Part shown: piece by piece, positions 1,422 through 47,322 of the stretch
Layout of the letters: each line of letters opens with the position of its first letter
How positions within the stretch are numbered: position 1 is the first letter of the stretch
Source: a virus
Lineage: Duplodnaviria > Heunggongvirae > Uroviricota > Caudoviricetes
Direction: 5' to 3' (one strand)
Length of the DNA stretch: 48,656 nt
Virus record (IMG/VR): IMGVR_UViG_2534681762_000009
Span: 1-48,656 of that record
Position numbers and translations under genes: made by a program
Notes under the pieces: generated by a model
Told to the model about the DNA's origin: nothing
Seen by the model: the letters and a program-made list of their open reading frames with translations, nothing else
The model's database searches: none

Positions 1422-2873
1422 TTAAAAATCAGCCTGATTCGGGATCAGTTTTTGCCAGATAACTGAAACGTATTTTGCCTGGTAACGGGCGTCATCAAGT
1501 GCATTATGGCGCTCACCTTCGAATGGAATAGCCGTTCTGGCATCGAAGTCTATGGCTTTCCCCAGCTCAACGATTGTGCGTACATCGCGATCGTTGTAGT
1601 AACGCCACGGGCAGGGGATCCCCTGCCGTTCGTATGAACGGCGCAAAATCGTGTTGTCGAAGTTGGCTCCATTTCCCCAGACCTGAACAAAAAATTCACC
1701 GGAGTTTTCGTCGATAAATTCCCGCAATTGTAACAGTGCATCATCTAACGGGATTTCATCGGTCATAATGGCAGACTGCGCTTCACGTGATTGCTTCAGC
1801 CACCTTTTAATGACGTCACGATCAATGACTCCGCCAGCAGTTTCCAGATCGATAGTCTTACTAAATTCCGGTCCCATATCTCCGGTTTGCGGATCGAAAA
1901 ATATTGCACCTATTGAGATAATCGGGGCATCAGGATTTTTTCCCATGGTTTCAAGGTCGATCATTAGATGGTCACACGTCCTGCTGGTGGATGTGATAAC
2001 GTGATGACCGTTCATCGTAATTAAGGGATCTGCCGTCTCGCCAGTTTCACTATCGCTGGCGTGATCCTGAGCGCTACCAGCATTCTCCTTGTGTGGATGT
2101 TCAGCGCCTTCCATTTCCTTCGGATCATTTTCCTGAACTTCAACCTGATTCTCTTCATCGAATGTTTCCTGGTATGTTGCGTCACCCATCACCGCGCCAC
2201 AATCAGGGCAGTTGCCGCCACCGCTTTGACCGCAGGCGGTGCAGACTTTTTCCACTTCCTGTTGCGCTACTGGCTCAGGTTGTTTCGTTTCTGGCTCGTT
2301 TTGTTGCGTATTTGGGCTGTTTTGTTCCGCTTTCTGGTCGTTCTGTTCCGATTCTTGCTGGTTCTGGTTTACAGAATCGCGGGTCTCAATCCCCTTTACC
2401 CATTTCGGATCATTCGGGTCGCTAATCCCTTCAACAAATTCTCCGCGAGAGGCAGCAAGCAACTTATCGGCGTCAGGCTGGCTGATATTGGCTGCCTGCA
2501 TAATTTTGTTTACTTCGTCAGCGGTAACTTTTACCGGCTCTGGTTGTGCGGTCGTGTCAGATGCACCAGTATTTTGTTGTGAACCTGAGTACGTGCCGTT
2601 TTTACGTGCGAAGTATTCCTCTTTTGTGATTTCCGTAGCTCCCAAGGCTAGTGCCTTATCCAGACCAGAAAGTTTGTTTGCGCGACCGTATTTTTCGCCA
2701 TCCTTGTCGGTGAAGAGGAAGTAGAACGGCCCCTCACGCTCTACAGATGGTTCGACTTCCACTTTGCATTCGGTTTTTTCGTTGCCCGGAATTGCCGTTT
2801 CCACTGCATCAGTTTCTGGTACTGGCGACGAGAGAGTATCAACAGCGCTCTGATTTGTTCCTTCATTCTTCAA
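1422..2873 (-). CDS. Exonuclease with C-terminal DEDDh (DnaQ-like) 3'-5' exonuclease domain; N-terminal Q/N/E-rich low-complexity region and CxxC…CxxC zinc ribbon
   Basis: C-terminal motifs MIDLETMG … H-x4-D ([11 protein letters not shown]) characteristic of DEDDh exonucleases; [16 protein letters not shown] zinc-ribbon; long uninterrupted ORF in early-left operon. Confidence 0.75.
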
Positions 2874-3894
2874 ACACGCCCTTTGTCGTCAGGTATTCAG
2901 TAATGTATTTGTTCAGTGCTACGGGATCTTTGTGAATGTCGATCGGACGCTCACGGACAAGGCCAAAAATAGTTTGGCGGTCGTAGCGAAGGGCATCAGG
3001 CTGTTTGCGCATTGATGCCGAGATACGCTTCCAGTCTTCGCGGTCGTTGTCGATAACTTCATTTTTTGCCCAGCGATGGATGCTGCCGTCAATGTTTCCG
3101 GCATCCACATCACCAGGCCAGAGAGCGTAGGCCAGTTCGTCATCCAGTGTTTTCCATGTCTGCTTGTATTCGCGATGAATGGCAGCAATGACCGGGCTGA
3201 TTTTTCCTGTTGAATTTTCAGTGTACTGTTGATTGGCTCTGGCGCGGGCGAGATCAACAACAGACGTGTATTTTCCGGTTTCCTTGCGTTCACCTTCGCG
3301 ACGTTTTTTCCAGATGCGCATCTCTGCCTGAATTTCGGGCCATTTAGCACCAGGAATACATTTATGCTTAACCCACCCAATGGCGTGCAACTTAAGCTCC
3401 GGATACATGGCGTTAACTTCTGGCATTTTCATCAACGCTTCAACGATATGTCCGTCGAATGTTGCCATGTCTTCCTGCAACAATTCCTGTGCGCTAATAA
3501 CCATATCAACGGTGATGTTTTCACATGTGTCGAACTTAACCATGACAGCGTTCTGTACTTCAGGGGCCAGCTTGTCAAAAGTGACGTTCATCGGATCGGA
3601 TTCAGTCTCAACCGGGACAAAAGAAGCAGACTCCTCATCCCAGCGGTTTTCCTGCATATATTCAGCATCCCATGAATCGAGGGCAGGGCGGGGTATGCCA
3701 GGTTTATCCTCGCAGACAATAAATTTATAAGCGCAGTCCTGAGCAGCCGGATAATGTTCCAGGAATTGCCAGTGAAATTTTGCTCGAGCACGGCGTTCGT
3801 CGCCAGCTTCAATGGCTGTGGCTACAGCCACAGCGCCTTCTTCCCTTGTTGCCAGTTCGTCAGGAATAGCGGCGCAAATAAAGACTTTACTCAT
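2863..3894 (-). CDS. Conserved prophage protein of unknown function (early-left operon)
   Basis: Long ORF (frame open to 3930); start chosen at Met with GAGG RBS 10 nt upstream (MSKVFICAA…); overlaps downstream exonuclease gene start by 11 nt suggesting translational coupling. Confidence 0.6.
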
Positions 3895-3986
3895 TTGTTT
3901 TAACCTCATGACAGATTTAAGGATGAACAAATCCCTGCCATTGCTGGCATATAAGAATGAAACCGGATATTTATTACGGAACTGTT

Positions 3987-4178
3987 TTAAAGACCTGCCG
4001 GGATTTCGATATTATCCTGGTGAATAACTTTATCGACCGGGTAACAGTTACCGGGAATTTTCTGTTCGGTTGCTGCAGTCATACACTCCTGCATTGTCCT
4101 GTGAACACTGACTGCAATATCAACTGGCTCTCCGGAAACAAGAAAAACTGTCAGAACAAGCACAAATGCTGAATTCAT
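3987..4178 (-). CDS. Small protein with N-terminal signal peptide (YdfD-like position downstream of dicB)
   Basis: 63-aa ORF from internal Met with AAAGGA RBS; hydrophobic N-terminus MNSAFVLVLTVFLVSG; start ATG overlaps dicB stop (ATGA). Confidence 0.5.
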   Translation of the reverse strand: MNSAFVLVLTVFLVSGEPVDIAVSVHRTMQECMTAATEQKIPGNCYPVDKVIHQDNIEIPAGL

Positions 4179-4363
4179 TGTGCACATCCTTTTGGCATCA
4201 GACGTAAACGAGCCAGCATTGAAACAATGCATATTTTATTTAATAGCTCCCGTTCTTGTTTTCTCTTGTTAATGGCATCTTCAGTAAATACTGGGTTACT
4301 GATAGTGACACCAATTTCAAAACAACCTTCAGACGTATTAACGTTTGGTAATAACGTTTTCAT
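4175..4363 (-). CDS. dicB: DicB-like cell-division inhibitor (62 aa)
   Basis: 62-aa ORF MKTLLPNVNTSEGCFEIGVTISNPVF… with GAGGA RBS; matches my recollection of Qin-prophage DicB and lies directly downstream of a DicF-like sRNA, as in the Qin dicB operon. Confidence 0.65.
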   Translation of the reverse strand: MKTLLPNVNTSEGCFEIGVTISNPVFTEDAINKRKQERELLNKICIVSMLARLRLMPKGCAQ

Positions 4364-4532
4364 TATCGCGTCCTCAACAATGAATTTTGTGATGCAGTGC
4401 CTGGTGCCTCCAGGTGACGTTAACCAGTTAACAATTAACGCCGGATACAGAGAATCCACCCATAACACTGTTTTTGGTTTTAACTGTTCCGCGTGCGCTC
4501 AGCCGCATTCACCACATCACAAAATTCACTTT

Positions 4533-4590
4533 AAAAAGGGCGGCAGAGCAGTCACGGAGTAAAACTGATACCGCCAAACGTCACCAGAAA
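4533..4590 (-). ncRNA. dicF: DicF-like small regulatory RNA (ftsZ-targeting antisense sRNA family)
   Basis: Minus-strand sequence reads TTTCTGGTGACGTTTGGCGGTATCAGTTTTACTCCGTGACTGCTCTGCCGCCCTTTTT, matching the DicF sRNA as I recall it, ending in a GC stem plus U-tract; located between ydfC-like ORF and dicB-like ORF in a ~380-nt non-coding stretch. Confidence 0.6.
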
Positions 4591-4849
4591 ATTGATAACA
4601 GAGGGCGTTGCAGCGGGGTTGTCACTTAAGCGTATGGTCAACCTGACAACCCGGTGTCCTCAACGGGGAAGGAATAACCCCGCCATACTTACCGCCGCGC
4701 CATTTTGCGGGTTGCCACAACCGGAAGCGCACGGTCGAATTAAATTTAACGACACCGTACAGTGAGACGAACTTCGCCGTGCGCTTTCGTGTTGTGTGCC
4801 TGCTTTTAACCACGTCAGGCGAGGTGGTATCCTTAAAATCACCACAGTT

Positions 4850-5425
4850 TTAAGGATTCATTAAGCAATGTCGCAACCACCAATAAATCCGCTTAAGAAC
4901 ATGAAAATTGATTACTGGTATAAAGCGCTTACAGTTGTTGGCGCTGCGTTGTTTGTCTTTAATGGAACGTCTTTTTTTGACAGATATCCCGTTGTTCCAT
5001 TGGGTTTTTTGTCCTCCGGCATCTTTTTTATTGGTTTGGGGGAGTGGATTAATCACCCTCTCAAAGTGAGATTTATTGGCCCTGGAGTTTGGACTCGTGG
5101 ATATAATCGTTCTTCGTGCGCACTCGGTATCATCTTCGACATACTTGGTTGTTTCCTGATTGTTACAGGAGTCGTCAAGTTCTTCTGATGTAAAACCGCA
5201 AATGGGGCACGTAACGGGAATTTTGAAAAGCGTTTCTCCGGGTTCCAGAACAAAATTTTCTGCGGTCTGATTTTGCTTCTCATATTTGTGCTCCGCGTCA
5301 TTGTGAGAGCACATTCTTATTCTGAGTGCCTGTTTAAACTCACTGAAGCTGAGAGCTTCTTCGCCTTCGGCAAGGCCTTCGAAGTATTCTTCGTAAGCCT
5401 TTTCCATGATTGTGTCGAAATCCAT
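4850..5425 (-). CDS. Qin-type early operon protein (YdfB/YdfC-like, possibly fused); contains CPICG zinc-finger-like motif
   Basis: ORF from Met (MDFDTIMEKAYEEYFEG…) with AGGTGA RBS; N-terminal half looks protein-like, C-terminal ~80 aa are basic/low-complexity and are fully overlapped by an antisense membrane-protein ORF, so true 3' end uncertain. Confidence 0.45.
   Translation of the reverse strand: MDFDTIMEKAYEEYFEGLAEGEEALSFSEFKQALRIRMCSHNDAEHKYEKQNQTAENFVLEPGETLFKIPVTCPICGFTSEELDDSCNNQETTKYVEDDTECARRTIISTSPNSRANKSHFERVINPLPQTNKKDAGGQKTQWNNGISVKKRRSIKDKQRSANNCKRFIPVINFHVLKRIYWWLRHCLMNP
4868..5188 (+). CDS. Candidate small inner-membrane protein (3 predicted TM helices) encoded antisense within the early-left operon
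   Basis: 106-aa ORF with three clean hydrophobic helices (ALTVVGAALFVFNG, LGFLSSGIFFIGLGEWI, ALGIIFDILGCFLIVTGVV); AAGGA upstream of ATG; opposite-strand membrane gene in this operon is reminiscent of sieB placement in Rac; may instead be an antisense artefact. Confidence 0.3.
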   Translation: MSQPPINPLKNMKIDYWYKALTVVGAALFVFNGTSFFDRYPVVPLGFLSSGIFFIGLGEWINHPLKVRFIGPGVWTRGYNRSSCALGIIFDILGCFLIVTGVVKFF

Positions 5426-5426
5426 A

Positions 5427-5582
5427 TCACTCACCTGAGTTTCTTTCCAGCCAGCGACGGGCACCATTTTCGGTTTTAAACGTTTTGCTTTTGGTATACG
5501 TCATTGCGGTGAACGTACCGTCCTGGTTGGGGAACACGCCACATACCAGAGATTCGCTGTTGCCAAGATTGATAGTATCCAT
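5427..5582 (-). CDS. YdfA-like small protein (51 aa), first gene of early-left operon
   Basis: 51-aa ORF from Met (MDTINLGNSESLVCGVFPNQDG…) with GAGG RBS; immediately downstream of left operator palindromes. Confidence 0.5.
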   Translation of the reverse strand: MDTINLGNSESLVCGVFPNQDGTFTAMTYTKSKTFKTENGARRWLERNSGE

Positions 5583-5767
5583 GCTGACCTCATTTCCCCT
5601 TAACGCCGGGGTAGCGGAACAAAAACCTGCTGCATAGTTATTAAAGTTGTACCCTGCCGTCATGTTCTTACGCCTCGGGCTGGCTACTTAACCCCTGACC
5701 ACTGCCTGGTAACTCGAAGTATTGCCCTGCATTCTGTGGAGCGGGGTGAGTTGGTATGAAAAGAAGG

Positions 5768-5805
5768 ATACCCATAGGTATTTAAAAAGTAAATACCCAT
5801 GGGTA
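5768..5805. promoter_or_regulatory. Left operator region (OL-like): two palindromes ATACCCATAGGTAT and TACCCATGGGTA
   Basis: Perfect 12-bp palindrome TACCCATGGGTA (5793-5804) and near-palindrome ATACCCATAGGTAT (5768-5781), same half-site family as sites between repressor and cro-like genes. Confidence 0.5.
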
Positions 5806-5847
5806 ACTTTTTGCGGTGTCTTAACTGGTGACTAGTTGTTTGGTGAG

Positions 5848-6267
5848 CTATGATGCGTTTTGTGCTTTCTTTTTACGGATTTCTTCGTAGATCATATTGT
5901 AATACTGTTTTTTCTCTTCAAGAGTTTTTAATAAGTTATCCGCTTCACTTTCTGGCAGTTCGTCTAAGAGATCTAAAAAAATACGTTGTCGTGGCGTTAG
6001 AACCCTTGTTTCATAACTGGAGGCTGTGTTCGTTGATGATGAAACGATACCATCCATCCATCCCCGGGGTAACCCAAAGGACTCTTCGATAATCTCCACC
6101 ATATCATCAGCGATCCGTTTTTTTCCCTTTTTCCCCTCTGGGTACAACATTCTTGATACATAAGAAGGCTCGCGCCCGATCTTTCTGGCCACGTTAACCG
6201 CTTTACCATCGCATTTCTCATCACGAATTTTGATGAGTTGCTGTCGTCTAAATTCATATTTGTCCAT
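5848..6267 (-). CDS. Prophage repressor (HTH; DicA/RacR/CI-like)
   Basis: 139-aa ORF with HTH segment (KAVNVARKIGREPSYVSRM), divergent from cro-like gene, flanked on both sides by related palindromic operators. Confidence 0.75.
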   Translation of the reverse strand: MDKYEFRRQQLIKIRDEKCDGKAVNVARKIGREPSYVSRMLYPEGKKGKKRIADDMVEIIEESFGLPRGWMDGIVSSSTNTASSYETRVLTPRQRIFLDLLDELPESEADNLLKTLEEKKQYYNMIYEEIRKKKAQNAS

Positions 6268-6302
6268 AGGTAAATAATAGATGCGATTACTGCAAGGTAA
6301 AC

Positions 6303-6343
6303 AACCTGTGGGTATTGACTTTTGTTTACCTGTAGGTATTCTT
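6303..6343. promoter_or_regulatory. Right operator/promoter region (OR/PR-like): ACCTGTGGGTAT and TACCTGTAGGTA palindromes overlapping TTGACT -35 and TATTCT -10
   Basis: Inverted repeats TACC-N4-GGTA at 6327-6338 and 6304-6315; TTGACT at 6315-6320 with a -10-like hexamer 16-17 bp downstream, ~25 nt upstream of cro-like start. Confidence 0.5.
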
Positions 6344-6367: not shown

Positions 6368-6649
6368 ATGGAAGAATTAAGAATATTTCTCAATTCTCTT
6401 TCGTCAGATGAACAGCGTATGTTTGCATGCGAGTGTGGTACCAGCATCGGTTATCTAAGAAAGGCATTGAGTAAAGGTCAAGTGTTAGGGGCATCGTTAT
6501 GTGTCCTTATTGAGCGAGCCAGTAATGGTGAAGTTACACGTCAGCAACTAAGGCCTTTTGATTGGATGAATATTTGGCCCGAGCTGGAAGATACCAAAAC
6601 GTTAACACAACCACTTTCTAGGAGCTTGATTCATGAAAATCAAGCATGA
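6368..6649 (+). CDS. Cro-like/YdaS-like HTH protein
   Basis: 93-aa ORF, AAGGAG RBS, divergent from repressor; HTH-like segment (CGTSIGYLRKALSKGQ); resembles Rac ydaS position. Confidence 0.65.
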   Translation: MEELRIFLNSLSSDEQRMFACECGTSIGYLRKALSKGQVLGASLCVLIERASNGEVTRQQLRPFDWMNIWPELEDTKTLTQPLSRSLIHENQA

Positions 6650-7058
6650 ACACATCCGCATGGCGATGAATGCCTGGGCGCATCCGGACGGTGAAAAAGT
6701 TCCGGCAGCTGAAATAACCAGGGCTTATTTTGAACTGGGTATGACGTTCCCAGAACTGCATGACGACAGCCATCCGGAAGCCCTGGCTCGCAATACCCAG
6801 AAAATTTTCCGCTGGGTAGAGAAAGACACCCCTGATGCAGTTGAAAAAATTCAGGCGTTGTTACCAGCGATCGAAAAGGCAATGCCACCTTTGCTGGTGG
6901 CCAGAATGCGCAGCCACAGTTCAGCTTATTTTCGGGAGCTGGTGGAGACGCGGGAGCGACTGGTGAGAGACGCTGATGATTTTGTCGCAGTGGCAATCGC
7001 CGGTTTCAATCAGATGAACCGTGGTGGCCCGGCAGGAAATGCTGTGGCAGTGCATTGA
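6633..7058 (+). CDS. CII-like/YdaT-like protein
   Basis: 141-aa ORF overlapping the cro-like gene end by 17 nt; position of cII in the lambdoid map. Confidence 0.5.
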   Translation: MKIKHEHIRMAMNAWAHPDGEKVPAAEITRAYFELGMTFPELHDDSHPEALARNTQKIFRWVEKDTPDAVEKIQALLPAIEKAMPPLLVARMRSHSSAYFRELVETRERLVRDADDFVAVAIAGFNQMNRGGPAGNAVAVH

Positions 7059-10096: not shown

Positions 10097-10307
10097 AAAC
10101 GGTTTGCGGGAAAAGGAGAGTTAAGTAGAATTGCAGCGGGTGCTTGAGGCTATCTGTCTCAGGCATGAACACCAAAAGGCAGATAGAGAAAAGCCCCAGT
10201 TAACATTACGCGTCCGGCAAGACGCTTAACATTAATCTGAGGCCATATCTATGCTCTACACACGTAGGTTAGCCTCTTACGTGCCGAAAGGCAAGGAGAA
10301 GCAGGCT

Positions 10308-10463
10308 ATGAAGCAGCAAAAGGCGATGCTAATCGCCCTGATCGTCATCTGTTTAACCGTCATTGTGACGGCACTGGTAACGAGGAAAGACCTCTGCGAG
10401 GTACGAATCCGAACCGGCCAGACGGAGGTCGCTGTCTTCACAGCTTACGAACCTGAGGAGTAA
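10308..10463 (+). CDS. hok: Hok/Gef family type I toxin (small membrane toxin)
   Basis: MKQQKAMLIALIVICLTVIVTALVTRKDLCEVRIRTGQTEVAVFTAYEPEE: canonical Hok family sequence (TM helix + conserved C-terminal CEV/R…EVAAF-like motif); in-frame upstream extension from 10251 resembles a mok-like leader ORF. Confidence 0.8.
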   Translation: MKQQKAMLIALIVICLTVIVTALVTRKDLCEVRIRTGQTEVAVFTAYEPEE

Positions 10464-10707: not shown

Positions 10708-11067
10708 ATGGCACTCACTGAATTCGGTAAGGCCGTTAGAAAAGCGAGGATCGATACTGACAGTACTCTTCTGACTATGTCTCAAGAACTGGGCACTACG
10801 CCAGCGTTTCTTAGCGGTTTAGAAACTGGTAGCAAAAAAATACCTCTGAAGTGGGTTAAGAAGATTGATTCTTACTTCAAGGCCAAAGGTGTAGAAATTG
10901 AAGGGTTACAGGAGTTAGCGGCAGTTGCGAATGACTCAGTTCCAGTAAACGGTTTGTCTCAGCAACAGAAAATGCTTGTAGCGGGATTCGCTAAGTCGCA
11001 GTTTACGCCGGAACAGCTAAAGAGTTTTGCAGATTTATTGCAAAAGATTAATAACAATGAGGGGTAA
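10708..11067 (+). CDS. XRE-family HTH transcriptional regulator
   Basis: 119-aa ORF, GAGGA RBS; N-terminal HTH (LTMSQELGTTPAFLSGLETG); directly upstream of and nearly abutting a metallopeptidase gene. Confidence 0.8.
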   Translation: MALTEFGKAVRKARIDTDSTLLTMSQELGTTPAFLSGLETGSKKIPLKWVKKIDSYFKAKGVEIEGLQELAAVANDSVPVNGLSQQQKMLVAGFAKSQFTPEQLKSFADLLQKINNNEG

Positions 11068-11069
11068 TT

Positions 11070-11546
11070 ATGTATCAAATGAGAGGTAACAGGGTGTCAC
11101 CGATGCAAGAAGAAGAAATAGCCTACAGAGCTATAAACTTCTGTAATGCTATTGGTCTTACAGCCTCAAAGCGCAAAAGAAAGCGTTATGATATGTTCTT
11201 TGAAAGCCTGTCAATTTATGGGGTTACTCTTGACGTCAGGACCGACAAAGAGTGGGAGGCTCTGACGTATGATCTAACTATCGGACATTGTGACCCCGCT
11301 TCTCTAACAATTACGGTTCCCAATAAAATATATGTGAATGCTTGCCTTGGGGAAGAGCATGCACTTGCTGTTATCTTCCACGAGCTAGGTCATTTGCTTC
11401 TTGGACACAAAGCAGTTTTACACTTTTCAGTTAAAGAACCTACTCGTATTGAGGATGCAGAATGGCAGGCAGATACATTTGCGGATATCGTACTGGAAAC
11501 AATTGGCGTGAGAACACAACAGATGTCGTTCGATTTTTATATGTAA
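11070..11546 (+). CDS. ImmA/IrrE-family (COG2856-like) zinc metallopeptidase
   Basis: 158-aa ORF with HEXXH motif (IFHELGHLLLGH); 2-nt gap from XRE gene; GAGGGG RBS. Confidence 0.8.
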   Translation: MYQMRGNRVSPMQEEEIAYRAINFCNAIGLTASKRKRKRYDMFFESLSIYGVTLDVRTDKEWEALTYDLTIGHCDPASLTITVPNKIYVNACLGEEHALAVIFHELGHLLLGHKAVLHFSVKEPTRIEDAEWQADTFADIVLETIGVRTQQMSFDFYM

Positions 11547-16183: not shown

Positions 16184-16259
16184 GGCCCTTTAGCTCAGTG
16201 GTGAGAGCGAGCGACTCATAATCGCCAGGTCGCTGGTTCAAATCCAGCAAGGGCCACCA
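16184..16259 (+). tRNA. tRNA with CAU anticodon (Ile2/lysidine-type, ileZ-like; could also be read as Met)
   Basis: Folded by hand: acceptor GGCCCTT/AAGGGCC, D-arm GCTC…GAGC, anticodon loop CTCATAA, T-arm GGTCGCTGGTTCAAATCCAGC, 3' ACCA; close to E. coli ileX-type sequence. Confidence 0.8.
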
Positions 16260-16268
16260 TATCACATA

Positions 16269-16345
16269 CCACCATTAGCTCATCGGGATAGAGCGCCAGC
16301 CTTCGAAGCTGGTTGCGCGGGGTTCGAGTTCTCGATGGCGGTCCA
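16269..16345 (+). tRNA. tRNA-Arg (anticodon UCG)
   Basis: Folded by hand: acceptor CCACCAT/ATGGCGG (one A-C mismatch), D-arm GCTC…GAGC, anticodon stem CCAGC/GCTGG with loop CTTCGAA, T-loop TTCGAGT, 3' TCCA. Confidence 0.7.
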
Positions 16346-16405: not shown

Positions 16406-16769
16406 TGGTTGCACTCCTGTTGTTTCTGGTGGTGATGGTGGACTTCAGCAGCCGGATAATGTCGGTGCTGTCTGATGGTGTTTTGGTGGCGGGTGTGTGG
16501 TTGTTGCTTTCCCGTTGCTGAAAAAGAAAGCATCAGGCGATTAGCAGGGTATCAGTTACACGTTGAAATTTTTAAATACCTCACAATTCCACAGCTTGAT
16601 GATTGTCTGGCTGCCGGAGAATTTGTTAAAAATTACATCGCATGGTGAATCCCCCTGTGCGGAGGGGTAATCAGCGAGTAGGTATATGGGATAATCGCGG
16701 ATTCAGGTGCTGGTACTGAATTCACCGGGAGGCACCCGGCACCATGCAATGGCACATAGCGCCACTCTC

Positions 16770-16800
16770 CAGCCCCTCTCCGGAGGGGCTGTTTATATTG
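16770..16800 (+). terminator. Rho-independent terminator
   Basis: CAGCCCCTC-tccg-GAGGGGCTG followed by TTTATATTGATTTTG. Confidence 0.5.
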
Positions 16801-46738: not shown

Positions 46739-47322
46739 TGGCATTCAGAATGAGTGAACAAGCACGGACCATAAAAATTTATAATCTGCTGGCCGGAACT
46801 AATGAATTTATTGGTGAAGGTGACGCATATATTCCGCCTCATACAGGTCTGCCAGCAAACAGTACCGATATTGCACCGCCAGATATTCCGGCTGGCTTTG
46901 TGGCTGTTTTCAACAGTGATGAGGCATCGTGGCATCTCGTTGAAGATCATCGGGGTAAAACGGTTTATGACGTAGCTTCCGGCGACGCGTTATTTATTTC
47001 TGAACTCGGCTTATTACCGGAAAATGTTACCTGGTTATCGCCGGAAGGGGAGTTTCAGAAGTGGAACGGCACAACCTGGGTGAAAGATGCAGAAGCAGAA
47101 AAACTGTTCCGGATCCGGGAGGCGGAAGAAACAAAAAACAACCTGATGCAGGTAGCCAGTGAGCATATTGCGCCGCTTCAGGATGCTGCAGATCTGGAAA
47201 TTGCAACGGAGGAAGAAACCTCATTGCTGGAAGCCTGGAAAAAGTATCGGGTGTTGCTGAACCGTGTTGATACATCAACTGCACCTGATATTGAGTGGCC
47301 TACGAACCCTGTCAGGGAGTAA
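46738..47322 (+). CDS. tfa: Tail fibre assembly protein (Tfa-like)
   Basis: 194-aa ORF ATGA-like coupled to stf end; typical Tfa N-terminus ([17 protein letters not shown]…). Confidence 0.85.

Follow-up and report, generated by a model that had tools for sequence, protein, structure and literature searches.

What kind of early region is encoded near the left end of the 48,656-nucleotide stretch of caudoviral DNA analysed here (IMG/VR record IMGVR_UViG_2534681762_000009, hereafter the window), and how are its parts related to those of the known Escherichia coli prophages? The initial annotation, made by reading the nucleotide sequence, had placed a DicF small RNA and a DicB division inhibitor in an early-left operon like that of the Qin prophage, and had regarded the region as a mosaic in which this operon is combined with a right arm of the Rac type. 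On the basis of the observed sequence identities, the order and family membership of the genes, the operator-like motifs and the prevalence, the region is almost certainly an early-left operon of the dicBF type from a lambda-like E. coli prophage, and it would operate by the mechanism proposed below.

DicF, dicB and ydfD in a Qin-type operon

The features of the early-left operon, in order of their coordinates within the window, are as follows.

1422..3894, minus strand: ydfE-type exonuclease gene, 823 aa in relatives, here present as ORFs of 355 aa and 483 aa
3987..4178, minus strand: ydfD, lysis protein of 63 aa, with an ATG start that shares bases with the stop codon of dicB (ATGA)
4175..4363, minus strand: dicB, 62 aa, cell-division inhibitor, expected by K-12 identity to act via MinC and ZipA
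4364..4537, minus strand: dicB 5' leader (DicF-dicB spacer), structured, STnc100-like, with the hairpin UCACCUGGAGGCACCAGGCAC
4538..4590, minus strand: DicF sRNA (53-nt form), assigned from Rfam RF00039, K-12 identity and fold; the U-tract of its intrinsic terminator extends to 4533
4591..4807, minus strand: conserved untranslated leader 5' of DicF; Qin homology begins at 4807
4868..5188, plus strand: 106-aa hydrophobic ORF, antisense inside the early-left operon, standing in place of ydfC
5324..5425, minus strand: ydfB remnant, the first 34 codons matching K-12 ydfB and the sequence diverging beyond
5427..5582, minus strand: ydfA (DUF1391), first gene of the early-left operon

The 58-nt DicF string given in the initial annotation occurs exactly at 4590..4533 on the minus strand, and the span of 4175-4600 given there for DicF and DicB is accurate. 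On the Rfam DicF model (RF00039, gathering score 48), which had been suggested as a check, the small RNA scores 76.7 bits (4589..4538, minus strand, covering positions 1-52 of the 52-position model; whole-window E 2.8e-15), and it is identical in 53/53 bases, including the 5' and 3' pairing regions, to the 53-nt dicF of K-12 (NC_000913 1649382-1649434). It folds into a terminator hairpin with a U5 tail (-15.9 kcal/mol, z -2.3), an energy matched by 2/200 shuffles. The 62-aa ORF, for which a comparison with DicB had likewise been suggested, is DicB: it is identical to the K-12 protein at 62/62 positions, with 136.8 bits on Pfam PF05358 (cut-off 27, positions 1-62 of 62) and 132.8 bits on NCBIfam NF049927 (cut-off 100). 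As sequence matches, those of DicF and DicB exceed any chance origin. YdfD is also 100% identical to its K-12 counterpart, scores 91 bits on Pfam DUF1482 and is labelled 'lysis protein YdfD' by PGAP, its function having been described previously (PMC8835842); of the host-directed products, the initial annotation had correctly named DicF and DicB as division inhibitors and had missed YdfD as the third toxic product of the operon. Two further candidates were discarded, namely a GTG-extended 97-aa dicB ORF (4468..4175, as called in phage HannyBb), since the Pfam and NCBIfam models and K-12 use the 62-aa form, and a plus-strand ORF antisense to dicB (4227-4562), which has no support and is regarded as spurious.

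The Qin-like arrangement that had been proposed for the operon is borne out by comparison with Qin itself, which in K-12 reads ydfABC-dicF-dicB-ydfDE under DicA/DicC and has the same gene order and polycistronic layout as the window: from ydfA to DicF, dicB and ydfD, all lie on one strand in K-12 order, with DicF inside a polycistronic prophage operon and upstream of dicB. Positions 4807..3128 of the window are 98.7% identical to Qin, and 4705..3128, a stretch that begins 115 nt upstream of DicF and holds DicF, dicB, ydfD and ydfE as far as the IS2 cut, is free of mismatches, so that all of the processing and pairing determinants mapped in K-12 within it are retained. Within the DicF leader, 4738 to 4591 differs from Qin by a single mismatch, at 4706, and the leader as a whole folds with a z of -2.4. 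Processing of the DicF precursor, with its RNase III and RNase E sites, has been demonstrated in K-12 (PMC10448788); from K-12 identity, which in the 190-nt precursor region is broken only by the base at 4706, an RNase III precursor of 190 nt at about 4727..4538 and an RNase E cut at 4590/4591, giving the 5' end of the 53-nt form, may be predicted. An RNAduplex calculation with K-12 ftsZ (-60..+30) yields a duplex of -38.5 kcal/mol over ftsZ -29..+26, spanning the ribosome-binding site, although this energy is equalled by 75/1000 shuffled DicF sequences (7.5%) and is not discriminating. The assignment of ftsZ pairing consequently rests on sequence identity and on the compensatory mutations by which pairing with the ftsZ ribosome-binding site was proven for the K-12 RNA, which has the same sequence (PMC5069750). 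More generally, the processing, targets and phenotypes of DicF, DicB and YdfD would be expected to follow those established by K-12 experiments on identical sequence, among them the action of DicB through MinC and ZipA, known for the same-sequence K-12 protein (PMC6832061).

The dicB leader, also identical to K-12, gives a full-length but sub-threshold match to Rfam STnc100 (4331-4540; 34.4 bits versus a gathering score of 47, E 2.8e-5). It is 79% identical to the kilS-kilR spacer of Rac, and its consensus fold, calculated from four sequences only, keeps 17/44 pairs via two-sided changes.

The upstream segment, the exonuclease gene and the state of the prophage

At the upstream end of the operon, the ydfA product is 94% identical to K-12 YdfA and 84% identical to Rac YdaF, matches Pfam DUF1391, and is called by PGAP in an identical locus elsewhere (L001), while the ydfB remnant, 34 aa at 100% identity to K-12, is labelled 'protein YdfB, incomplete'. 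The sole early-left segment that differs from Qin is 4807-5325, a 518-bp replacement of ydfC that holds the antisense 106-aa ORF. Around 60 clusters of homologous proteins, about 100-110 aa in length and ranging from E. coli to Yersinia, Herminiimonas and Reinekea, are found for this ORF, which has no Pfam domain; against phage mEp390, 4868-5188 scores 75.5 bits in the plus frame and 25 bits in the minus frame. A 205-aa minus-strand ORF (4850-5467; phrog_35040), called in HannyBb, was rejected beyond its YdfB-like first 48 aa because of the far better conservation of the opposite frame and the wide 106-aa family. Existing phage annotations place the locus of the 106-aa gene on the wrong strand. 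Lying between the early-left promoter and DicF, this antisense membrane-protein gene (4868-5188) could, by convergent transcription, cut read-through and gate DicF and DicB in the lysogen.

The architecture of this operon recurs in Rac of K-12, which shares with the window a DUF1391 gene (ydaF/ydfA), an sRNA with a DicF-like terminator, a homologous structured leader and a small division inhibitor. The DicF/DicB and KilS/KilR loci have the terminator hairpin and the leader in common at 79-90% identity, with STnc100 matches on both leaders, while KilS of Rac reaches 39.1 bits with the DicF model, short of its threshold of 48, and has a different 5' seed from DicF. It may tentatively be suggested that DicF/DicB is one version of a modular lambdoid early-left cassette, composed of an sRNA, a structured STnc100-like leader and a small division inhibitor, of which KilS/KilR would be a second version with sRNA seed and protein cargo swapped; in the window the cassette is faced, in addition, by the antisense gene. 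A side observation is that KilS of Rac is a diverged relative of DicF.

Compared with the K-12 Qin copy, which is cut by IS2, ydfE of the window is of full length and is followed by xis and int, though it is frameshifted. The exonuclease gene is interrupted at 2867 by an additional A that other loci (L004 and L001) lack, and this single-base insertion splits it into an N-terminal ORF matching phrog_2082 exonuclease (positions 1-343 of 823), the first 257 aa of which share 99.6% identity with the ydfE pseudogene of K-12, and a C-terminal ORF carrying an Rv2179c-like 3'-5' exonuclease domain. This frameshift may point to a decaying prophage and is, together with the truncated ydfB and the missing ydfC, part of the case for a different reading, by which the operon is a silent relic in a defective prophage, DicF and DicB having been kept by hitch-hiking or host domestication and not as a working lytic programme. 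The 100% identity of the segment to cryptic Qin suggests recent exchange with a defective element, and expression of the K-12 operon occurs in stationary phase and during stress, irrespective of phage growth (PMC10448788). However, one frameshift in a recombination gene that is not essential leaves a lambdoid phage able to function, near-identical cassettes occur in the isolated phages HannyBb, Tritos and mEp460, and phage genes are retained from integrase through tail genes: the window holds integrase, excisionase, the repressor/cro/CII-like switch, a replication initiator and Q antiterminator as well as lysis genes, terminase, portal and tail genes, the structural genes occupying its right half. 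The relic reading is considered unlikely.

The prophage extends from its integrase as far as the tail fibres, and relatives carrying this integrase adjoin ompW, so that the integrase and the probable attachment site differ from those of Qin (ompW-side in the window, rspB-side in Qin). With the ompW-site prophages (PPompW of O157 strains; that of E. coli EC0026B) and phage HannyBb, the window shares most early and late genes at 98-99% identity, including integrase, xis, exonuclease, dicB and DicF; these relatives differ in having an intact exonuclease gene and other immunity modules (a true racR in EC0026B). A HokD homologue was also found in the window by homologue search.

The immunity region and the right arm

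The immunity region to the right of the operon contains the following features.

5768..5806: pair of operator-like palindromes, ATACCCATAGGTAT and ATACCCATGGGTAA, at a spacing of 25 bp, a putative OL overlapping the early-left promoter
5848..6267, minus strand: 139-aa repressor in the CI position
6261..6342: divergent promoter/operator region (OR); sites resembling operators lie at 6302-6315 and 6326-6339, with a half-site close to 6261-6274
within 6261..6342, plus strand: pR-like promoter, TTGACT-16-TATTCT
within 6261..6342, minus strand: pRM-like promoter, TTTACC-16-TATTAT, with its end 7 nt upstream of the ATG of the repressor
6368..6649, plus strand: 93-aa Cro-like regulator, distantly YdaS-like
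6626..6643: YdaT operator OM, TTGATTCATGAAAATCAA, predicted by motif, spanning the ydaT-like start codon at the cro-like/ydaT junction
6633..7058, plus strand: 141-aa YdaT-family protein, lambda CII equivalent

The 139-aa repressor matches the transcriptional regulators of phrog_5736 (E 4e-70), with no match in Pfam and only insignificant winged-helix (Z-alpha) matches in the PDB. Only its C-terminal 46 aa are DicA-like (a weak 33%), the NCBIfam DicA model giving 23.9 bits against a cut-off of 101, and blastp and tblastn found no match to RacR in this protein or anywhere in the window; judged by these comparisons it is neither RacR nor DicA. Homologues of Rem, RacR, DicC, KilR, SieB, YdfC and RelE were searched for in the window and none was found, so that the immunity set differs from that of Qin (no DicA, DicC or Rem) and RacR, KilR and SieB of Rac are absent. 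The repressor has no recognisable self-cleavage domain, and the window no Rem-like antirepressor.

The interval between the repressor gene and the cro-like gene contains divergent sigma-70-like promoters, and operator-like palindromes lie on both sides of the repressor gene. Allowing at most one mismatch, 4 operator-like sites are found in the window (0.84 expected), 3/4 of them in the immunity region, and the repeats suggest that the repressor may bind there. A terminator-like match at 5805..5769 and mir-2041 matches at the same place were rejected as RNA, since it is the two operator palindromes that give the appearance of a hairpin. Directly 3' of the palindromes, at 5758, begins the homology to the early-left leader of Rac, and the putative early-left promoter has best hexamers that agree with the consensus at 8/12 positions, a weak fit that was not picked up by the promoter scan. 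From the layout, this promoter and this repressor are the probable controls of the dicBF operon; the repressor control assumed in the initial annotation is a sound reading of the arrangement, since DicF and DicB lie leftward of the divergent repressor/cro switch.

Rightward of the switch, the 93-aa Cro-like protein matches phrog_35 (E 5e-23) and PDB 8c7k, 'Phage antirepressor protein Cro' (E 1.2e-10). Its description as YdaS-type could not be upheld, since it scores 25.8 bits on Pfam PF15943 (YdaS_toxin), below the gathering score of 30 and over residues 35-66 only, and aligns to Rac YdaS at 54% over 28 aa only; on the strength of its matches it is kept as a Cro-type HTH protein. The CII-like, YdaT-type gene, by contrast, was recognised correctly: the 141-aa protein scores 39.6 bits on Pfam PF06254 (YdaT_toxin; gathering score 21), belongs with the CII-like activators of phrog_163, and matches PDB 8bt1 (E 5e-80) and, with 3 of its 141 aa differing (about 98% identity, E 1e-90), the E. 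coli O6 protein of PDB 3c4r. The YdaT family is one of CII-equivalent tetramers with a POU-like HTH. The motif TTGATT-N6-AATCAA, which has been footprinted at the ydaS/ydaT junction of CP-933P (PMC9986795), has one exact match in the window, at the start of this gene, and none occurs in any of 100 shuffles (0/100).

The cryptic prophage CP-933P of E. coli O157:H7, with its PaaR2/YdaS/YdaT set, has in common with the window the layout of divergent CI-like, Cro-like and YdaT genes, the same operator at the cro/ydaT junction, and a repressor promoter that appears to yield a near-leaderless transcript. The two differ in that CP-933P has a paaA2-parE2 toxin-antitoxin pair, where the window has none behind the repressor, and in their operator repeats, which are of the ATACC-N4-GGTAT type in the window and 18-bp palindromes of the GTTTAGTAA type in CP-933P, whose Cro-like protein (8c7k) is only a distant relative of that of the window (E about 1e-10). 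Taken by its protein and motif matches, the right arm reads as a switch like those of 3c4r and CP-933P, made up of a Cro-like protein and a YdaT protein as the equivalent of CII.

The Rac-type character ascribed to the right arm accordingly holds at the level of the family, both arms being of the YdaS/YdaT type with distant proteins, and fails for the module of Rac itself, YdaT of the window being 33% identical to that of Rac over its full length and RacR being missing. A literal Qin-Rac recombinant, with the right arm derived from Rac, would accord with the 85% identity of the early-left leader (5595-5758) and the 87% identity of ydfA to the racR-ydaG-ydaF region of Rac, with a 30-nt stretch at the YdaT operator that is 97% identical to Rac, where this operator is present at one mismatch, and with the true racR of close ompW-site prophages. 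This derivation is nevertheless contradicted by the protein comparisons, including the 28-aa extent of the YdaS alignment and the near identity of the YdaT-like protein to 3c4r; moreover, the operators are unlike anything in Rac and 813 genomes carry the immunity module as one unit, which makes such a recombinant highly improbable. The contrast drawn between Qin and Rac was also overdrawn, because the right arm of Qin has a YdaT-like gene of its own, ydfX (37% over 95 aa, E 4e-7).

Proposed mechanism, biological role and distribution

In the reading preferred here, the 139-aa repressor of the lysogen would bind the ATACC-N4-GGTAT-type operators on either side of its own gene and shut the leftward promoter. 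[quoted passage not shown] With Hfq, DicF would pair with the ftsZ ribosome-binding site, and also with xylR, pykA and manX mRNAs, blocking translation, and read-through would yield YdfD and DicB, the latter binding MinC and bringing it to the Z ring via ZipA, so that division would stop; DicB would also stop ManYZ-dependent DNA entry of superinfecting phage. This scheme is in keeping with published work, in which dicBF operons are described in many different prophages (PMC5069750) and dicB/kil genes sit downstream of a CI-like gene in prophages of the YdaS/YdaT type (PMC8630535). The kil gene in the pL operon of lambda provides a functional and positional analogy, kil and dicBF both being small repressor-controlled early-left genes that block formation of the FtsZ ring in lytic development (PMC3961180; PMC8630535). 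In contrast, lambda kil is unrelated in sequence, its product works via ZipA and FtsZ directly and DicB via MinC, and lambda has no DicF-like sRNA.

The main selected role might instead be the exclusion of superinfecting phage together with a rewiring of metabolism, filamentation being a side effect of overexpression. In experiments on the identical K-12 products, DicB made cells about 100-fold resistant to lambda and phage 434, by way of ManYZ and MinC (PMC6832061), DicF represses manX, xylR and pykA, ftsZ repression alone leaves its toxicity unexplained (PMC5069750), and the cassette is kept in 72% of complete E. coli genomes (3,927/5,426), often in several copies. Such a role is, however, compatible with division inhibition, because the DicB-MinC interaction is needed for both phenotypes, whereas a location matching that of lambda kil, and KilS/KilR as the parallel module of Rac, point to division control as the shared theme, and the PADLOC defence models match neither DicB nor YdfD, nor the 106-aa ORF. 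As the principal function, exclusion is therefore regarded as doubtful, and division control remains the preferred reading.

The combination of the cassette with this immunity module is not a rare one: the exact combination is present in 423 complete E. coli genomes, and prophages with racR and dicB exist too. In other genomes, identical DNA bears the PGAP labels dicB, ydfD, ydfA and 'toxin YdaT family protein'. The DicF-DicB pair of the window is thus real but not new; DicF, DicB, YdfD, their operon, processing, targets and spread among E. coli prophages have all been published, and the DNA is annotated in hundreds of RefSeq genomes. The value for annotation lies in the intact form of the operon, of which K-12 Qin keeps only an IS2-cut stump, and in a cassette that travels with interchangeable immunity modules. 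The link between KilS and DicF, the STnc100-like leader and the antisense membrane-protein gene could slightly refine the annotation of early-left regions and current views of how dicB and kilR are controlled.

The dicBF operon and its left-arm context

The minus strand at 4590..4533 reads TTTCTGGTGACGTTTGGCGGTATCAGTTTTACTCCGTGACTGCTCTGCCGCCCTTTTT, letter for letter the string that the initial annotation had taken for the DicF sRNA, and this identification is borne out both by a full-length match to the Rfam DicF model (RF00039; 4589..4538, minus strand; 76.7 bits, gathering score 48, E 2.8e-15; Rfam 15, whole window) and by exact agreement of 4590..4538 with the annotated 53-nt dicF of K-12 MG1655 (53/53). 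On folding, the RNA forms the expected terminator hairpin with U5 immediately after it. The next ORF on this strand (4363..4175), which had been called DicB-like, is identical to K-12 DicB at 62 of 62 residues and scores well over the curated thresholds of both PF05358 (Pfam) and NF049927 (NCBIfam).

Features of the left arm, from the repressor gene leftward.
6267..5848, minus strand: repressor gene, 139 aa
5768-5806: palindromes ATACCCATAGGTAT and ATACCCATGGGTAA
5758-5595, minus strand: leader, with 85% identity to the spacer between racR and ydaG of Rac
5582..5427, minus strand: ydfA, 94% identical to K-12
5425..5324, minus strand: ydfB, first 34 codons only
4807-5325: 518-bp segment unrelated to Qin, between the ydfB remnant and 4807
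From 4807 leftward to DicF, minus strand: conserved untranslated leader
4590..4538, minus strand: DicF
Between DicF and dicB, minus strand: spacer, 174 nt
4363..4175, minus strand: dicB
4178..3987, minus strand: ydfD, 100% identical to K-12, its ATG overlapping the dicB stop
3894..1422, minus strand: ydfE-type exonuclease gene, followed by xis and int

Homology to the K-12 prophage Qin spans 4807 to 3128 at 98.7% identity, with 0 mismatches over 4705 to 3128, and stops at the point of the IS2 interruption in K-12 ydfE; the window therefore carries the uninterrupted form of an operon that is kept as a stump in K-12. The ydfE-type exonuclease, which has 823 aa in relatives, is here divided into ORFs of 355 and 483 aa by an extra A at 2867 (GAAGAATG versus GAAG-ATG in two relatives), a change that is either genuine and inactivating or due to a sequencing error.

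The sole segment differing from K-12 Qin (4807-5325) surrounds a hydrophobic 106-aa ORF (4868-5188, plus strand), which lies antisense within the early-left operon in place of ydfC. Its homologues fall into ca. 60 clusters with lengths of about 100-110 aa and range from E. coli to Yersinia, Herminiimonas and Reinekea; searches of Pfam, PHROG, NCBIfam and PADLOC gave no match. In comparison with phage mEp390, its plus frame scores 75.5 bits and the annotated opposite frame 25 bits; with the opposite frame so much less conserved, the 205-aa call in phage HannyBb (CDS0038), phrog_35040 and mEp390 gp39 are probably wrong-strand annotations.

Repressor, operators and the YdaT-like right arm

The layout and the operator-like repeats suggest that the early-left operon is controlled by the 139-aa repressor. 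The motif ATACC-N4-GGTAT occurs with at most one mismatch at 4 sites in 48.6 kb (0.84 expected), three of which adjoin the repressor gene (5768, 5793 and 6326); a further copy with 2 mismatches is found at 6302, as well as a half-site overlapping the repressor start. A "terminator" at 5805..5769 and matches to mir-2041 were rejected, as both correspond to the two operator palindromes at 5768-5806. The candidate early-left promoter retains just 8 of 12 consensus positions, and we infer its placement from the operators and from the Rac homology that begins directly downstream of them. Directly downstream of the left operators, the leader at 5595-5758 is Rac-like, although neither these operators nor the repressor is related to Rac; the sharp mosaic joint falls at the presumed start of transcription. 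Between the repressor and Cro-like genes there is a rightward promoter-like sequence, TTGACT-16-TATTCT, and a leftward one, TTTACC-16-TATTAT, whose end is 7 nt from the repressor ATG, a near-leaderless arrangement reminiscent of the leaderless cI and paaR2 transcripts (PMC8630535).

Only the last 46 aa of the repressor resemble DicA, and weakly (NCBIfam DicA, 23.9 bits, cut-off 101); the protein shows no similarity to RacR and no detectable autocleavage domain. Homologues of RacR, DicC, Rem, KilR, SieB and YdfC are encoded nowhere in the window, which accordingly lacks a Rem-like antirepressor.

The right arm had been described as Rac-type (YdaS/YdaT-like), a label that is correct at the level of the YdaT family and imprecise with respect to Rac itself. 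The 141-aa protein (6633-7058) passes the Pfam YdaT_toxin threshold (39.6 bits versus 21), belongs to phrog_163 (CII-like activator), differs from PDB 3c4r at 3 of 141 residues and matches 8bt1 at E 5e-80. The 3c4r protein, from an E. coli O6 cryptic prophage, is 84% identical to the YdaT of the O157:H7 prophage CP-933P, whose binding site, TTGATT-N6-AATCAA, lies at the end of ydaS (PMC9986795). This motif has a single mismatch-free occurrence in the window, at 6626-6643 across the ydaT-like start codon (0/100 shuffles). The operator site is also present in Rac, with one mismatch, but Rac YdaT is only 33% identical to the 141-aa protein; Qin YdfX is 37% identical to it over 95 aa. The neighbouring 93-aa protein (6368-6649), whose similarities clearly mark it as a Cro-type regulator (phrog_35; PDB 8c7k, E 1.2e-10), falls under the Pfam YdaS threshold (25.8 versus 30), and its alignment with Rac YdaS is confined to 28 aa. 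Given such distant YdaT and YdaS relatives and no RacR, the right arm is of the YdaT family but is not Rac's own module. The proposed contrast of a Qin left arm with a Rac right arm was also overdrawn, because Qin too carries a YdaT-like gene.

The DicF-dicB spacer and Rac KilS

The sRNA KilS of Rac lies upstream of kilR, the position that DicF (4538-4590) occupies upstream of dicB, and shares the terminator hairpin with DicF but differs in the 5' part. The KilS region (Rac locus L003, 7411-7466, minus strand) scores 39.1 bits on the Rfam DicF model, below the threshold of 48 (E 1.2e-5), and the kilS-kilR spacer (170 nt after KilS) is 79% identical to the DicF-dicB spacer. The paper naming KilS makes no mention of DicF.

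The DicF-dicB spacer (4331-4540, minus strand) and the kilS-kilR spacer (L003 7223-7409, minus strand) both match Rfam STnc100 over its full length, at scores of 34.4 bits (E 2.8e-5) and 28 bits that stay under the threshold of 47. A genuine copy of STnc100, scoring 132 bits, is present in the late region of the window, at 16610-16800 (plus strand). These elements share the hairpin UCACC(U/G)GGAGGCACC(A/C)GGCAC, which includes a compensatory change. In a consensus fold of four sequences, 17 of 44 pairs are kept via two-sided changes; this is only suggestive of a conserved structure, since two of the four are nearly identical.

Distribution of the cassette and expected activity

The DicF-dicB element is textbook knowledge, already annotated and published: dicBF loci have been reported in different prophages and in multiple copies (PMC5069750), and kil or dicB genes downstream of a CI-like gene in YdaS/YdaT-type prophages (PMC8630535). 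The 426-bp DicF-dicB stretch (at least 80% coverage) is found in 3,927 of 5,426 complete E. coli genomes, at a median of two and a maximum of nine places per genome. The 1.3-kb immunity module occurs in 813 genomes and the 3.2-kb combination of dicB and immunity in 423, several 100% identical, where PGAP labels comprise dicB, ydfD, ydfA and "toxin YdaT family protein". The cassette is also found in isolated phages, among them HannyBb, Tritos and mEp460, and in O157 PPompW prophages. The best whole-prophage matches have the integrase in common, adjoin ompW and carry dicB plus a genuine racR; the right half of the window consists of lambda-like structural genes with 98% identity to a prophage of E. 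coli 55989. Prophages that directly adjoin ompW in other E. coli genomes (locus L004, 2317-4131) have the same 376-aa integrase (1-1131), whereas K-12 Qin and a 100%-identical dicB/immunity locus (L001) adjoin rspB; prophages that differ in attachment site therefore carry the same cassette.

Several further loci were observed. A hok/sok type I toxin-antitoxin locus (10138-10463; Rfam sok, 117 bits) encodes a HokD 100% identical to that of K-12 Qin. In the nin-like region (10708-11546, plus strand), adjacent genes for an HTH protein (119 aa) and an ImmA/IrrE-type metallopeptidase (158 aa; Pfam Peptidase_M78, 24.6 bits) give weak PADLOC matches to capH/capP-like regulators and could form a module that cleaves a repressor or regulates defence. 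Two phage-borne tRNA genes (16184-16345, plus strand) lie downstream of the genes for the Q antiterminator and a methyltransferase: one has the anticodon CAT, which ARAGORN assigns to Met and PGAP, in a relative, to tRNA-Ile, and the other is tRNA-Arg (TCG). Rfam IS009 (RF02111) has a full-length match (225.7 bits) at the tail-fibre end of the prophage (47081-47279, plus strand).

As DicF, DicB and YdfD are identical to the K-12 molecules, the biochemistry established in K-12 can be applied to them. DicF is excised from a polycistronic transcript by RNase III, as a 190-nt species, and by RNase E, as the 53-nt species (PMC10448788); the former would map here to ca. 4727..4538, with one base differing from K-12. 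An Hfq-binding RNA, DicF pairs with the ribosome-binding site of ftsZ and so represses it, as compensatory mutations proved, and it further represses xylR, pykA and manX (PMC5069750); the computed energy of the DicF-ftsZ duplex was not discriminating. DicB binds MinC, delivering it to the Z ring through ZipA, and also blocks ManYZ-dependent phage DNA entry (PMC6832061), and YdfD, a lysis protein, inhibits IspG (PMC8835842). Derepression from the 139-aa repressor would be predicted to release DicF, DicB and YdfD to act as their K-12 counterparts do.
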